The position numbers were made by a program, and so were the translations under genes. Positions 51,635-55,899 of a stretch of DNA of 57,280 nucleotides are shown one piece after another (the first letter of the stretch is position 1; the number at the start of each line of letters is the position of its first letter). Where the stretch lies: the sequence record DRR378314_1639; one strand, 5' to 3'. The notes beneath the pieces were generated by a model. The model did not search any database. It was not told the origin of the DNA and worked only from the letters and a program-made list of their open reading frames with translations.

Positions 51635-51659
51635 GACCGAACCTGATGCGGCAGCATCA
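51635..51659. repeat. Degenerate direct copy of the REP palindrome, containing the comM stop codon
   Basis: GACCGA-ACCTGATGC-GGCA-GCATCA compared with GATCGC-ACCTGATGC-AATA-GCATCA at 50895-50919. Confidence 0.7.
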
Positions 51660-53204
51660 TAAGCTCTGCACCTGCTCGATAAGCCGATCCAACGCACGAT
51701 AATTCAATGCCTCTGCCAGATGCTGCTGTTCTATTTTTTTGCTGTCGGCTAAATCGGCAATGGTTCGGGCTAAACGAAGTGTTCGGTGATAGGCCCGATG
51801 CGACAATTTCATTTTCTCGGCCGCTTTTGCCAAAAAAGCTTCGCTTTGTTCAGACAAAAAACATATCTGCTTTAACACTTTTGGTTTTAACTCGCTATTT
51901 AAGCAACCTTGTCGCATTAGTTGGCGATGCCGAGCTTTCTCGACTAAGCTTTTTGCTTGTAATGAGGTCATGGGCTGAGTCTTGTGCTTAGCTGCCCCCT
52001 TTAAACTCATAGACTCGCTCTCTCGGGGCACCATCACCTGTATATCAATACGATCTAACAGCGGTCCTGAGAGTTTACTTAAGTATTTTAAGATTTGATC
52101 CGGGGTAGAACGGCAGTTAGCTAAGGAGCCATCGAATTGACCGCAGGGCGAAGGGTTCAGCGCGCAAACCAGCTGAAAATTAGCCGGGAATTTGACGTTG
52201 TATCCTGCACGACTAATGGTAATTTCACCACTTCCGAGTGGTTCACGTAAGCAGTCCAATACATGTCGACTGAACTCGGGCATCTCATCTAAAAATAATA
52301 ACCCATTGTTTGCTAAGGATATTTCTCCTGGACGAATCGAATTACCCGTTCCACCTCCCACAAGCGCAGCGGCTGTACAGGTATGGTGCGGATTTCGCAG
52401 CTCGCGCCGTGTTAACGCCTCCGCATGATGGTAATCAAAAGACACCGACTTCACCGCAGCAATTTCCATGGCTTCCTGCTCGGTCAGTGGAGGTAATATG
52501 CCATTAAGCCGTTGCGCAAGCATGGTTTTTCCCGTACCTGGCGGCCCGACGAACAACAAGTGGTGCTTACCGGCCGCCGACAACAACAAAGCTCGTTTTG
52601 CCTGCTCCTGCCCAACCACGTCGGCTAAGTCGCCATCATGGTTCGATGATTCCTTTGCCCAATTTATCGGCTTTGATTCCCTCAGTGGCTGGTGATCGTG
52701 CAAATGTTCATAAACACTGACCAAATCGGCCGACAACCAGCTCTTTTGTTCACGTACTAACCCGGCTTCCTGCTCGTTAGCAATAGGCACAAACGCCTGC
52801 CGCTTTTTATTACGACACGCCAATAAGGCTGGGATTAAACCATTCACAGCCCGCAACTCGCCGGTTAACGCCAGCTCACCATAGAATTCTGCTTGCTCTA
52901 AAATACTGTCCGGTATTTGTCCCGAAGCCGCCAATATCCCCACCGCTATGGCCAAATCATAACGCGCCCCGGTTTTGGGGATATCCGCTGGCGCCAAATT
53001 CACTGTAATACGTGTGGCTGGCGGGTATTCAAATCCCGCGTTCATCAAGGCGGTTTTGACCCGATCACGAGCCTCCTTAACCGTGGTTGCCGGCATGCCG
53101 ACCATAGTAAAGCCTGGCATTCCCCTTGCCAGATCCACTTCAACCCGAATTTCCGGCGCATGAATACCTATCAATGCCCGGGTATAAATTCGCGCTAACG
53201 CCAT
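51657..53204 (-). CDS. comM: ComM/YifB Mg-chelatase-like AAA+ ATPase (intact)
   Basis: RITVNLAPAD, GELALTG, GPPGTGKT, PGEISLA.NGLLFLDE and LSGPLLDRID. Confidence 0.95.
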   Translation of the reverse strand: MALARIYTRALIGIHAPEIRVEVDLARGMPGFTMVGMPATTVKEARDRVKTALMNAGFEYPPATRITVNLAPADIPKTGARYDLAIAVGILAASGQIPDSILEQAEFYGELALTGELRAVNGLIPALLACRNKKRQAFVPIANEQEAGLVREQKSWLSADLVSVYEHLHDHQPLRESKPINWAKESSNHDGDLADVVGQEQAKRALLLSAAGKHHLLFVGPPGTGKTMLAQRLNGILPPLTEQEAMEIAAVKSVSFDYHHAEALTRRELRNPHHTCTAAALVGGGTGNSIRPGEISLANNGLLFLDEMPEFSRHVLDCLREPLGSGEITISRAGYNVKFPANFQLVCALNPSPCGQFDGSLANCRSTPDQILKYLSKLSGPLLDRIDIQVMVPRESESMSLKGAAKHKTQPMTSLQAKSLVEKARHRQLMRQGCLNSELKPKVLKQICFLSEQSEAFLAKAAEKMKLSHRAYHRTLRLARTIADLADSKKIEQQHLAEALNYRALDRLIEQVQSL

Positions 53205-53384
53205 CTGTCTCTCCGTGACTAAACAACGGCGTAACTATAAGCCTTGGGAAAATTCCTGTCTGTAAGCTAAACACTTCAAGCAATGACCGATATCATTCCT
53301 TCTCTCACTTGCTTTTATACCCACTTCTGTCATCATCTTGCCTTAATTAAGAACAAACCGAATAACCAAGGGTCACGAAAATCC

Positions 53385-53765
53385 ATGTTCCACCAACTGA
53401 ACCAACAGTGTCGAAAAGGTCGGTATATAGCACCATTGCTATTGCTGGTTTTTACGCTGTGCTGGGGACAAAATTTTGGTTGGTTAGACGGCTGTCCTAA
53501 GCATCAGCAAGCTTCAGCGACGGAGCAGATCACTGATAGCCACGCGGCTACAAATGCCAAACACGAAAGTGCCAAGGCAGACTGCGAAAAAACCACGCAT
53601 TTGCTGCAGCAGTTTCAGCCTGACATCACCTACGCGGCCCTCTCTTTCTTCGTTCTTTTGGTTTTGGCTCTGCAAACAGTTATTCACAAACATCTGCCAC
53701 CTCCACCGTTTTTCTTTTCCTGTAAAAGGCGACCCCACGCCGTATTTTGTTGCTTTCTGGAGTAG
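53385..53765 (+). CDS. ScsA-like membrane protein (first gene of the scs operon)
   Basis: TM with Cys, His/Cys linker with DCE, second TM, LPPPP, and C-terminal RPHAVFCCFLE. The tail resembles the R.H..FC.F.E end of ScsA as I recall it. Directly upstream of scsB; start probably ATG 53385. Confidence 0.7.
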   Translation: MFHQLNQQCRKGRYIAPLLLLVFTLCWGQNFGWLDGCPKHQQASATEQITDSHAATNAKHESAKADCEKTTHLLQQFQPDITYAALSFFVLLVLALQTVIHKHLPPPPFFFSCKRRPHAVFCCFLE

Positions 53766-53812
53766 CCCTTCCGACGGATTCTTATCGTTGGAATACTAAC
53801 TTCAGGAGTAAT
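53749..53812 (+). promoter_or_regulatory. Stem-loop sequestering the scsB Shine-Dalgarno with the scsA 3' end
   Basis: GTTGCTTTCTGGAGTAG (53749-53765) pairs with CTAACTTCAGGAGTAAT (53796-53812), enclosing the helix TTCCGACG/CGTTGGAA. Confidence 0.6.
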
Positions 53813-53814
53813 GT

Positions 53815-55899
53815 ATGAATAAAAATTTATCGTTATGGCTGCTATCGCTTATTGCTGCGCTGCTGCTTTATAGCGCGCAAAGCTTAGCAGAAACGCCGTC
53901 TACTGGCTGGCTCAGCCATGAAGACCACCCGCCGGTGTCGGTCAAGCTGGAACTGACCGGTCACTATGAGGCTGAGCGGAACCTATTACCTGCCCTGCTG
54001 CATGTGGAACTGAATGAGGGCTGGAAAACCTACTGGCGCTCGCCGGGTGAAGGCGGTATACCGCCAACCTTCGACTGGTCTCAGTCAGATAATATTAACC
54101 ATATTGAGTGGCACTGGCCAGTGCCATCACGCTACAGCATTCAGGGTATTGATACCCTTGGGTATCAGGGGTCGTTGACCTTCCCGTTAATGATACAACT
54201 AAGCCCCGATGCCCGGCAGGCTCACATTAGCGGTACGCTGACTATGTCGTCCTGTACCACCGTTTGTGTGTTAACGGACTACCCAATTGACTTGCACGTT
54301 GACATAAACACCCTAACCGTCGACAGTGATCGTGCCTTTGCCTTTAATCAGGCGATGGGCAAGGTGCCTCGGGAGTACGACAGCAATAACGTCAAGCAGG
54401 CTATTTGGTCCGACGCCAACCAGCGCGTTCAATTGACCATAGAGCGTGACAGTGGCTGGAAAAACCCACAGCTGTTTATACACAGCAACGACGAGACTTT
54501 GGCCGACGCAGAGTTTTCATCACCAGATATTCAGGTGGAAAGCAATTCGCTCACGGCGAATGTTGACGTTAGTCACTGGCTGGATCTGCCGGACCTAAAC
54601 GGCGCTGAACTTATAGCGACAGTCAGTGATGAAAAGTTTGCCGCTGAATATAAGATTCAGCTAACCGCAGGCACTATTGCTAATAACGCACCGCCGCTGT
54701 GGGCCATTTTACTTATGGCATTAGCTGGTGGGCTTATTTTGAACATTATGCCTTGCGTGTTGCCGGTACTGGGTTTGAAAGTTCAGAGCCTGATGCTGTC
54801 AGGAGTACAAGAACCGAAGGTCGTGCGTAAGCAGTTTTTCGCGTCGTCATTAGGTATTATCAGCTCGTTTCTGGTCATTGCCCTGGGGCTTATGGCGCTT
54901 CGCTGGTCAGGCGGTTCTGTCGGCTGGGGTATTCAATTTCAGAACCCTTACTTTATTGCCGCACTAGTGGCTATTACCTGGCTGTTCGCACTGAACTTAA
55001 TGGGCGCCTTTGAGTTTAAATTGCCGTCTGCTTTGAGTACCAGTGCCGCAACCGCCGGTGATGACAGCTACAAAGGGCACTTCCTGCAAGGCATGCTGGC
55101 CACCGTATTGGCAACACCTTGTACAGCGCCTTTTTTAGGCACCGCAGTAGCCTTTGCATTAGCGGCTGAGTCATCGGTTATTCTGCTGATTTTTGCCGCG
55201 CTTGGAGTTGGTATGGCGCTGCCCTGGTTACTTATAGCCGTGTTCCCGAAAACCGCAAAATTACTGCCCAAACCCGGTCGCTGGATGCAGTGGGTGAAAC
55301 CCGTTTTCGCCATTATGATGCTGGCAACCACGGTCTGGCTGACAACCTTGCTGAAAAACTTTATCGGCAACGAGTTATTCCTGGCGCTAACCGTCGGTTT
55401 ATCGGTTCTGACATTGGTGATTATTGGTAAAGTGCATGGCCGTAAGGCGCTGTTTTTATCCATTGGTGGCTTTTTGGTATTAGCTGCCGTTGTCGGTACG
55501 ACGTTAATTCTTACCGCAGACCGTTGGGTCAACAAACTACCGCAGGACCACCAATGGCAGCCACTAACCCAGCAACGTATTGATGAAGCCGTTGCCAGTG
55601 GCCAAACCGTGTTTGTGGATGTGACCGCAGACTGGTGTGTGACCTGCCAGGCTAATAAGGTGGGCGTATTACTGCAAGACCCGGTATTTACAGCCTTAGG
55701 TGAGAAGCACGTCACCCGCCTGCGCGGCGACTGGACCAAAGCCAACGAGAGCATTACCCAATACTTAAAGGCAAACAATACCTTTGGTGTGCCCTTTAAC
55801 AAAGTTTACGGACCCGGCGCTCCGGACGGTATAACCCTGCCCGTAGTACTCAGTAAAGATAAAGTTATGGACGCGCTGGAGGATGCTCGTGAGCAATAG
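53815..55899 (+). CDS. scsB: ScsB-type DsbD-family thiol:disulfide transporter
   Basis: Signal peptide, GWKTYWRSPGEGG and CTTVC (alpha domain), LNIMPCVLPV and ATPCTAP (beta), ADWCVTC (gamma). Confidence 0.9.
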   Translation: MNKNLSLWLLSLIAALLLYSAQSLAETPSTGWLSHEDHPPVSVKLELTGHYEAERNLLPALLHVELNEGWKTYWRSPGEGGIPPTFDWSQSDNINHIEWHWPVPSRYSIQGIDTLGYQGSLTFPLMIQLSPDARQAHISGTLTMSSCTTVCVLTDYPIDLHVDINTLTVDSDRAFAFNQAMGKVPREYDSNNVKQAIWSDANQRVQLTIERDSGWKNPQLFIHSNDETLADAEFSSPDIQVESNSLTANVDVSHWLDLPDLNGAELIATVSDEKFAAEYKIQLTAGTIANNAPPLWAILLMALAGGLILNIMPCVLPVLGLKVQSLMLSGVQEPKVVRKQFFASSLGIISSFLVIALGLMALRWSGGSVGWGIQFQNPYFIAALVAITWLFALNLMGAFEFKLPSALSTSAATAGDDSYKGHFLQGMLATVLATPCTAPFLGTAVAFALAAESSVILLIFAALGVGMALPWLLIAVFPKTAKLLPKPGRWMQWVKPVFAIMMLATTVWLTTLLKNFIGNELFLALTVGLSVLTLVIIGKVHGRKALFLSIGGFLVLAAVVGTTLILTADRWVNKLPQDHQWQPLTQQRIDEAVASGQTVFVDVTADWCVTCQANKVGVLLQDPVFTALGEKHVTRLRGDWTKANESITQYLKANNTFGVPFNKVYGPGAPDGITLPVVLSKDKVMDALEDAREQ

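Follow-up and report, generated by a model that had tools for sequence, protein, structure and literature searches.

What is the role of scsA, the small gene that stands first in loci of the Scs (suppressor of copper sensitivity) system, a defence in copper and redox stress, immediately 5' of the gene for the DsbD-like reductase ScsB? The biochemistry and the topology of ScsA are still called open in recent work (PMC10907172; 10.64898/2026.05.22.727170). We addressed this question at an scs locus in a stretch of 57,280 nucleotides (sequence record DRR378314_1639; referred to as the window), whose closest protein match is from Idiomarina loihiensis, with 98% identity. The gene order is scsA-B-D-C, which is also the order reported for Vibrio scs loci (PMC10907172), and 49 nt lie between the scsA stop codon and the scsB start. 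What is said here and below of PMC10907172, PMC3672137, PMC9973294 and bioRxiv 10.1101/2025.02.05.636593 refers to excerpts of these papers. A first-pass annotation of the window had proposed that the end of scsA folds onto scsB's Shine-Dalgarno (SD) sequence and that ScsA is a nascent-chain sensor that gates scsB translation. Our analysis confirmed that, throughout the ScsA family, a conserved and covarying stem sequesters the SD and shares its sequence with an invariant peptide at the C-terminus. The pattern argues for a coupling of scsB translation to scsA translation by SD unmasking, which we regard as very probable.

The end of scsA sequesters the scsB start site

In the window, the last codons of scsA fold onto the scsB start site and mask it. 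The segment 53749-53765 (GTTGCTTTCTGGAGTAG), consisting of the end of codon C121, the C-F-L-E codons, and the stop, pairs with 53796-53812 (CTAACTTCAGGAGTAAT), which includes the AGGAG of scsB, and the strands TTCCGACG (53769-53776) and CGTTGGAA (53787-53794) form an inner helix that completes the hairpin. The strings and coordinates that had been proposed for this pairing were exact, and the same nested hairpin, including its inner helix, was the minimum free energy (MFE) structure of positions 53740-53830 in ViennaRNA (-26.5 kcal/mol). None of 200 dinucleotide shuffles was as stable (-15.1 +/- 2.7 kcal/mol; hairpin z -4.2). The outer stem spans 53741 to 53817, and therefore the scsB AUG is also paired. 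For the ribosome, we used a footprint of about -12 to +15 around the P site. The probability of pairing between the SD and this upstream footprint was 0.996 at the scsA-scsB junction, the top value of 14 same-strand junctions in the window (median 0.009); one other junction, scsD-scsC, reached 0.70. When the footprint of a ribosome with the scsA stop in its A site was forced to be single-stranded, about 14 kcal/mol were lost and the GGAG was unpaired in the MFE structure.

The 5' strand of the inner hairpin (CUUCCGACG, 53769-53777) is itself anti-SD-like. This strand remains engaged as long as only the outer stem opens and the inner one does not melt, but a partial unfolding of the hairpin could offer a second SD trap. 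A scan for terminators found no terminator-like site and no U-tract terminator in the scsA-scsB region, and an intrinsic terminator at the junction was rejected on these grounds. Of the sampled words, the RNA-library runs contained 5-8%, in contigs from related strains, which is too little for a co-transcription claim, and a single 151-nt contig that covers 53709-53840 is likewise not sufficient.

The first-pass annotation had suggested aligning gammaproteobacterial scsA-scsB junctions for a conserved SD-occluding stem, and this comparison found the stem conserved, with compensatory changes. It comprised 102 junctions with 100 distinct segments, taken from the window, from 22 Idiomarina loci, and from 79 of 80 named loci, and belonging to Idiomarina, Vibrionaceae, Oceanisphaera, Psychromonas, and Pantoea/Erwinia/Enterobacter. 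The scsB starts were corrected by hand in seven loci and in L059, and the named locus L101 was left out because its downstream gene is not scsB. The pairing probability of SD and footprint was at least 0.5 in 89 of the 100 distinct segments and at least 0.75 in 69, with a mean of 0.77 for the native sequences and 0.22 when the 5' arm was dinucleotide-shuffled; 91 native segments exceeded their own control. With a ribosome in place, the computed SD accessibility increased in 84 of 100. The spacing between the two genes, 47-55 nt, is tight in most lineages. Within Idiomarina, four sequence-divergent clades have the same hairpin design in different sequences, as exemplified by the arms UUUCCUUGAAUAA/UUAUUCAAGGAA in L017 and CUGGAAUAGC/GCUAUUUUAG in L018, and in L022 the anti-SD is found 6-11 nt past the stop. 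The inner hairpin is of unrelated sequence in the other Idiomarina clades and in most other genera.

Among 96 distinct junctions, the first base of the Arg codon forms C-G (66) or A-U (16) pairs, and its wobble base G-C (27), A-U (35), U-A (4), or G-U (8) pairs. The Glu wobble base forms A-U (58) or G-C (20) pairs, the third base of the stop codon A-U (65) or G-C (15) pairs, and at the Val wobble position all four Watson-Crick pair types occur. As judged from these alignments, the compensation falls exactly at the sites that the peptide leaves free. The register-fixed partners were chosen by an energy-minimizing duplex search, which is biased towards pairs, and for this reason we added swapped-arm, RNAalifold, and covariance-model controls. 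When arms were swapped between junctions, the mean duplex energy changed from -15.6 to -12.3 kcal/mol, a difference of 3.3 kcal/mol, and none of 2000 permutations reached the native mean. RNAalifold found a 10-bp stem in 31 enteric and Pantoea junctions, in which even the middle base of the stop codon covaries (G-C 16, A-U 10, G-U 5; UGA with UCA, UAA with UUA). At E<=1, a covariance model built from these 31 junctions retrieved 32 more loci, which belong to other genera; in its alignment, which as a model-fitted one leans towards structure, 94.2% of the cells were paired compared to 51-70% with slid partners, and none of 500 column shuffles reached the covariation score. RNAalifold on a MAFFT alignment of 26 mixed-clade junctions had given no pairs, with misregistered 3' arms, and this alignment was replaced by the clade-restricted alignment and the covariance model.

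The ScsA family and its C-terminal tail

The window protein had been called ScsA-like, an assignment that our profile searches support. It comprises 126 residues with two predicted transmembrane (TM) helices, which fits the description of ScsA (about 120 residues, two TM helices), and its sequence had no match in Pfam or NCBIfam. The start at 53385 was upheld, as a longer frame from 53283 is broken by stops in relatives; the only promoter-like site that was found overlaps this alternative frame, which also favours the shorter one. A query with the protein alone matched 23 of 61 related genomes, which all belong to the genus (23/28 versus 0/33 outside); 22 of these loci were used, as L023 was dropped (stops inside the match, E 0.002). 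L023 and the borderline matches L024 and L025 were excluded from all counts. When 1.84 billion proteins were searched with a profile of 13 Idiomarina sequences, 58 cluster representatives were retrieved at E<=1e-3, and nearly all of them align up to their own last residue. Four of them with truncated, repetitive, or different C-termini (P0014, P0050, P0058, P0067) were excluded from the family set, and the remaining 55 are 19-69% identical to the window ScsA, with C26, C67, C122, and E126 invariant and C37, R116, H118, and F124 conserved to at least 90%. The named members are "hypothetical proteins" of Vibrio and Photobacterium and one "Copper resistance protein".

In 42 of the 151 genomes in an Enterobacteriaceae sample, a widened profile (A2) matched one small open reading frame (ORF), which stands first in loci of the scsABCD type. 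All 30 fetched loci end in H-L-x-x-C-[VI]-F-[RQ]-E-stop, and the gene on the 3' side was DsbD-like in the four that were tested. Family members stand upstream of a DsbD-like scsB in Vibrionaceae, Aeromonadaceae, and Enterobacteriaceae. A sparse class-wide sample of 400 genomes gave three matches, of which two were borderline, and an Enterobacter scsA-scsB stretch had no match in E. coli complete genomes. In L137, the enteric homologue that precedes scsB, scsC, and scsD, ordered as in Salmonella, has the sequence CIAQRVAGLHAL. The ScsA signature is described as "TAQRMAGLHAL" together with a CX2C motif (CLAC) in TM1, and CLAC is retained only by close relatives of Salmonella ScsA (PMC10907172). 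As CIAQRVAGLHAL fits this signature and the profile joins both groups, we regard the window ORF as an ScsA homologue. It is related to Salmonella ScsA by the profile, by its position as first gene before scsB, and by its size and two predicted TM helices. The Idiomarina proteins differ in having a single Cys (L-C-W-G-Q-N-F-G) where CLAC is expected and in lacking CLAC and most of "AQRMAGLHAL", so that only C-x-x-Q-x-x-G is common, and their gene order is A-B-D-C instead of scsABCD.

The protein features that had been described for the window ScsA hold: two helices (residues 15-30 and 81-103), a Cys/His-rich loop, an LPPPP run, and the terminal RRPHAVFCCFLE. The periplasmic location of the loop is predicted from the positive-inside distribution. 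The AlphaFold2 (AF2) model is poor, with a mean predicted local distance difference test (pLDDT) score of 66.7, a predicted template modelling score of 0.36, and a tail pLDDT of 55-58, and it was not used for fold searches. A predicted complex of ScsA and ScsB scored 0.00, which is evidence neither way.

The most conserved part of ScsA is its C-terminal tail, with the consensus (P-P)-x-R-R-x-H-L-x-x-C-V-F-R-E-stop, or K-R-R-P-H-A-V-F-C-C-F-L-E-stop in Idiomarina. The 80 named loci (Photobacterium, Vibrio, Enterovibrio, Psychromonas, Oceanisphaera, Pantoea, Erwinia, Enterobacter) were picked by the tail pattern HL[TIV][LF]CVFRE and are unusable as proof of motif conservation, which is to be judged from the genus query, the 58-representative profile, and the Enterobacteriaceae sample, none of them selected by motif. 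In a set of 133 ORFs with 123 distinct 30-residue tails, E(-1), C(-5), and H(-9) occur in 123 tails and F(-3) and R(-11) in 122, and the frame always ends right after the Glu, with TAA (72), TGA (42), or TAG (19) as stop codon. The first-pass annotation had asked whether the motif is preserved as an amino-acid sequence with a set distance to the stop, and this is the case. Synonymous codons vary by clade (AGG/CGA/CGG/AGA, GAA/GAG, UGU/UGC, CAC/CAU; AGG-CGA, CGA-CGA, or CGA-AGG for R-R), and in most clades the core stem does not include H(-9) and R(-11). Selection therefore acts on the amino acids and not on RNA alone, and the tail is selected separately from the stem. The LPPPP run, which had been noted as a feature of the protein, is not conserved: it is limited to the closest relatives of the window, whereas most Idiomarina proteins have LAPPL, and polyproline as an arrest element in Idiomarina was rejected for this reason. 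The earlier interpretation is partly supported, in the conserved stem, the conserved tail, and the identity as ScsA.

The tail that follows TM2, counted from the last hydrophobic 15-mer, has a median length of 26 residues (interquartile range 25-28, range 18-31). The exit tunnel holds about 30-40 residues, and with a ribosome at the stop codon, the whole tail would therefore be inside the ribosome, with TM2 just emerging. The base after the stop is U in none and C in 51 of 96 junctions. In E. coli, U after the stop is the strongest and C the weakest termination context. The base thus lies at the weak end of termination contexts, which is only a hint, as the position is also paired. In the low-confidence AF2 helix 117-123, H-x3-C-x3-E would share one face.

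Some ScsA-like genes precede genes other than scsB. A second copy in Vibrio harveyi (L136, chromosome 2) and the copy in Photobacterium jeanii (L101) are followed by a DsbA/ScsC-like gene and lack an scsB, with the CVFRE-stop tail intact. Pairing of the terminal codons persists in L136, with a GUUUUAUUUU stretch, but the SD is located behind a second hairpin about 90 nt downstream. On the enterobacterial contig L137 (2365-3729, 13055-16715), two ScsA-like genes lie about 10 kb apart, one before a gene with DsbC_N and thioredoxin domains (DsbC/G-like) and the other before the canonical scsB-C-D. With its occurrence before DsbA-like and DsbC/G-like genes, ScsA resembles a portable leader.

Gate, sensor, or plain coupling

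We propose that scsA acts as a cis-acting translational gate for scsB. On the free mRNA, the SD and the AUG of scsB would be hidden by pairing with the last eight scsA codons and the stop, and a ribosome at the scsA stop would cover the whole 5' arm, upon which the stem would melt. As only a ribosome at the end of scsA would melt the stem, scsB could be initiated only during or shortly after the completion of scsA. In addition, the invariant tail would act in the exit tunnel as a pause or arrest element of termination, at a stage at which its 26 residues are wholly in the tunnel. The pause would lengthen the time in which the stem is open and thereby permit a 30S subunit to load. Its duration might be set by TM1 insertion and by oxidation or Cu(I) loading of C26, C37, and C67, in analogy to CutF, and/or by the pulling force of TM2 insertion, and ScsB synthesis would rise when envelope thiols are copper-loaded or mis-oxidised. 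That the tail slows or arrests termination and that the state of the exported part (loop Cys, TM1/TM2 insertion) tunes this dwell has, in our estimate, a probability of about 45%; we consider it a well-motivated and directly testable hypothesis.

Among these systems, TnaC and SpeFL are arrested with the stop codon in the A site, and they have conserved residues over the last about 12-20 positions and a fixed stop position. They sense a small cytoplasmic molecule in the tunnel and control Rho termination, whereas ScsA, a membrane protein, has an SD hairpin as its target. SecM-secA, VemP-secDF2, and MifM-yidC2, as described in excerpts, resemble scsA-scsB in the layout of a C-terminal arrest segment of about 17 residues and an SD stem that is opened by the stalled ribosome, with a pulling force on the exported or inserted N-terminal part releasing the arrest. 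They have no sequence similarity to ScsA, and they monitor the export machinery and stall in elongation, whereas for ScsA the stall would fall at termination and the monitored condition would be copper or thiol stress. ScsA shares with arrest peptides in general the amino-acid-level conservation of the C-terminus at a fixed distance and the position of the SD in a structure that the ribosome would open.

A close parallel is CutF-cutO of Rhodobacter capsulatus, where, in the published model, the thiol/copper state of the exported part sets the ribosome dwell (PMC9973294; bioRxiv 10.1101/2025.02.05.636593): in the CutF model, periplasmic disulfide formation helps to pull the chain out, and copper binding blocks this (bioRxiv 10.1101/2025.02.05.636593). 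Like ScsA, CutF is, in the excerpted descriptions, a small exported protein with a Sec signal or anchor, periplasmic Cys, and a conserved C-terminal motif, encoded directly 5' of a copper-stress enzyme, with a stem-loop that shields the downstream SD. ScsA differs in its second TM helix, in the DsbD-type reductase as target, in an anti-SD that lies within the coding sequence instead of the spacer, and in the motif R-x-H-x3-C-x-F-x-E, which ends exactly at the stop and is not RAPP/PPP. The main text of the CutF paper makes no mention of Scs or DsbD; its supplementary sequence similarity network clusters of CutF-like proteins fall outside this statement. The DUF2946 leader CruR of Bordetella pertussis (CruR-bfrG) is a copper-responsive upstream ORF with a cis-acting nascent peptide (bioRxiv 10.1101/2025.02.05.636593). 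The same excerpts report that it works by Rho-dependent termination across a spacer of 162 nt and that copper relieves the arrest; there is no such spacer at scsA-scsB.

ScsA itself is, on the following sequence comparisons, not a member of DUF2946. None of 55 ScsA representatives matched Pfam DUF2946 (PF11162) at E<=0.1, with one weak match to CopL_fam in NCBIfam (E 0.012). PF11162 was found in 52 of 401 genomes of a phylum sample (a tally that includes the unpublished and otherwise unused genome G971) and in none of the 10 genomes of the family of the window in this sample. As a single DUF2946 seed search had matched only itself, 31 DUF2946 sequences were taken from genomes (L138-L168); their profile match contains an invariant Cys in a motif of the C-G-Y-C type and closes with a nearly invariant R-A-P-P, the canonical RAPP arrest motif, whereas ScsA tails end in C-V-F-R-E or C-C-F-L-E. 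In the DUF2946 locus L138, the next ORF is His/Met-rich. An alignment of profile A2 to the 31 sequences with hhalign gave a weak 62.9% probability over 72 columns, comprising the signal peptide, the linker, and C-x-L-x-x-L-L on C-G-Y-C-x-L-L, with the C-terminus unaligned, and 1.4% for ScsA against a single DUF2946 member. A distant common origin is possible on this basis.

Genetic data from Salmonella fit a regulatory role of ScsA without proving it. An scsA deletion mutant is sensitive to H2O2 whereas an scsABCD deletion mutant is not, C-terminally His-tagged ScsA was undetectable, and complementation by single genes failed for all scs genes, scsA included (PMC3672137). A literature search found no account of the proposed mechanism for ScsA; subscription-only work, including the 1997 and 2018 J Bacteriol papers on scs, lay outside this search.

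Several aspects weigh against the proposed gate and sensor. On the RNA side, 10 of the 100 segments show little SD-footprint pairing (P<0.25), and with the footprint blocked, the mean SD accessibility rose only from 0.16 to 0.39, which is about the level with shuffled arms (0.34). The covariance model of the enteric junctions fails to score the junction of the window itself at E<=1, and as related genomes are not independent, all counts are higher than the number of independent events. The copies L136 and L101 keep CVFRE-stop although their SD is about 90-280 nt further downstream and unpaired with the terminal codons, which shows that the peptide has a role independent of this particular hairpin. 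On the protein side, the tail contains no recognised arrest motif, neither RAPP nor a C-terminal polyproline; LPPPP is not conserved, and only 87 of 123 tails have P(-14). With its 120-140 residues, two TM helices, and four conserved Cys, ScsA could be a stable functional membrane protein, and reviewers in the field favour a peroxidase-like or accessory role (PMC10907172; 10.64898/2026.05.22.727170). A Salmonella scsA deletion was not copper-sensitive (PMC10907172), although such sensitivity might be expected from the loss of a required scsB activator, unless the deletion also removes the anti-SD arm.

As to the RNA, plain translational coupling, which the first-pass annotation had named as the simpler alternative, is fully alive. 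The hairpin would then fix the scsA/scsB stoichiometry and prevent scsB translation from internal or processed transcripts, there would be no programmed pause, and the tail would serve the mature inner-membrane protein, for example by forming a metal site of His, Cys, and Glu in the cytoplasm, with H-x3-C-x3-E on one face of a helix, or by contacting ScsB or a thioredoxin. We regard this as a realistic, though not the favoured, explanation. All RNA evidence fits it without any arrest, as do the two TM helices with conserved Cys in each compartment, the tail motif kept in copies with an unpaired downstream SD, the H2O2 sensitivity as a phenotype that the Salmonella scsA deletion has in its own right (PMC3672137), and the proposal that ScsA is a substrate of ScsD (10.64898/2026.05.22.727170). 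What it does not readily explain is that the tail and not the TM segments is most conserved, with a C-terminal end that is fixed across families of about 20-30% identity, and that the length of the tail matches that of the tunnel. The poor AF2 model, with the low pLDDT values of the tail, also speaks against it, and the loss of the scsA deletion phenotype upon additional deletion of scsBCD looks regulatory (PMC3672137).

The stem-loop could also act mainly at the RNA level, as a stabilizer, a processing site, or a Rho/attenuation element between two units, with SD masking being secondary. Older work described scsA and scsBCD as two transcription units (cited in PMC3672137), CruR acts via Rho termination (bioRxiv 10.1101/2025.02.05.636593), and some ScsA copies have long spacers with other hairpins. 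We nevertheless consider such a primary role improbable, as the region holds no U-tract terminator, covariation falls precisely on the pairs that join the terminal codons to the SD region, and the gene spacing is tight in most lineages. Still less probable is a complementarity by chance, in which the codons for Phe-Arg/Leu-Glu-stop (UUC CGN GAA UAA) would happen to match a purine-rich SD and no structure would be selected. UUCC is indeed a natural anti-SD, and the peptide constrains the 5' arm. The compensatory changes at synonymous and stop-codon positions, the swapped-arm (0/2000) and shuffled-arm (0.22 versus 0.77) controls, and the median near 0.01 of the other 13 junctions of the window stand against it.

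Surrounding genes and implications of the proposed gate

The coordinates of the locus are compiled in Table 1. Downstream of scsA, the whole operon looks translationally chained, as the scsB and scsD-like frames share 17 nt (55883-55899). The SD of the scsC-like gene also pairs around the scsD-like stop (P 0.70; stop 56419, start 56444). This is ordinary tight coupling rather than a separate gate, since the 24-nt gap puts a terminating ribosome almost on the SD. Upstream of scsA, a divergent ORF on the minus strand (51657-53204) encodes 515 residues with a P-loop (GPPGTGKT), and its product resembles Mg-chelatase-like ATPases of the ComM/YifB type.

Table 1. Features of the scs locus and of the scsA-scsB junction (window positions).
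Feature	Position	Strand	Basis
Sigma-70-like promoter candidate upstream of scsA	53268-53296	+	Consensus scan, 9/12 matches; pattern match only
scsA homologue, 126 aa + TAG stop	53385-53765	+	ORF; 23/28 genus genomes; 58-representative profile family
TM1/signal-anchor, residues 15-30	53427-53474	+	AF2 helix; ends in invariant L-C-W-G (C26, 55/55 representatives)
Predicted periplasmic loop, residues 31-80	53475-53624	+	C37, C67 (D-C-E-K-T-T-H-L-L), several His; Cys/His-rich
TM2, residues 81-103	53625-53693	+	AF2 helix, block pLDDT 85-86; hydrophobic segment in 133/133 homologous ORFs
Cytoplasmic tail, residues 104-126	53694-53762	+	Motif R116-x-H118-x3-C122-x-F124-x-E126 at 53730-53762
Outer stem, 5' arm: last 8 scsA codons (A119-E126) + TAG	53741-53765	+	MFE and centroid; same layout in 22 Idiomarina loci
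Inner 9-bp hairpin, caps the structure	53769-53793	+	MFE fold
Outer stem, 3' arm with scsB SD AGGAG (53804-53808) and AUG (53815-53817)	53796-53817	+	MFE fold
scsB, 694 aa, DsbD-family reductase	53815-55899	+	Pfam DsbD_N, DsbD_TM, Thioredoxin_7
scsD-like membrane-anchored thioredoxin-fold protein, 178 aa	55883-56419	+	Pfam AhpC-TSA/Thioredoxin/Redoxin; NCBIfam ResA/TlpA-like below cut-offs
scsC-like DsbA/DsbG-type periplasmic oxidoreductase, 243 aa	56444-57175	+	Pfam DSBA, Thioredoxin_4

The broadest version of the proposal would be that ScsA founds a new class of termination arrest, without RAPP or polyproline but with a His/Cys/Glu triad in the tunnel and exported Cys that report copper or thiol stress. 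Instead of being an enzyme, ScsA would in this case serve the entire Scs system of Salmonella, other pathogens, and marine bacteria as its translational sensor, and one old family of metal-sensing nascent chains would have ScsA and DUF2946 as its two branches. We consider this version as a whole doubtful.

The end of scsA is anti-SD RNA and invariant peptide at once, a combination that marks a translational gate acting in cis. If the RNA part alone is true, the published scsA deletions and tags probably alter the translation of ScsB, and the phenotypes ascribed to them need rereading. If the peptide part is also true, it would widen the range of ribosome arrest sequences, and it would explain why an scsA deletion in Salmonella is harmful only when scsBCD is present and why ScsA was undetectable. 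In this case, trans-membrane nascent-chain sensing of the CutF type would reach into thiol-redox homeostasis.

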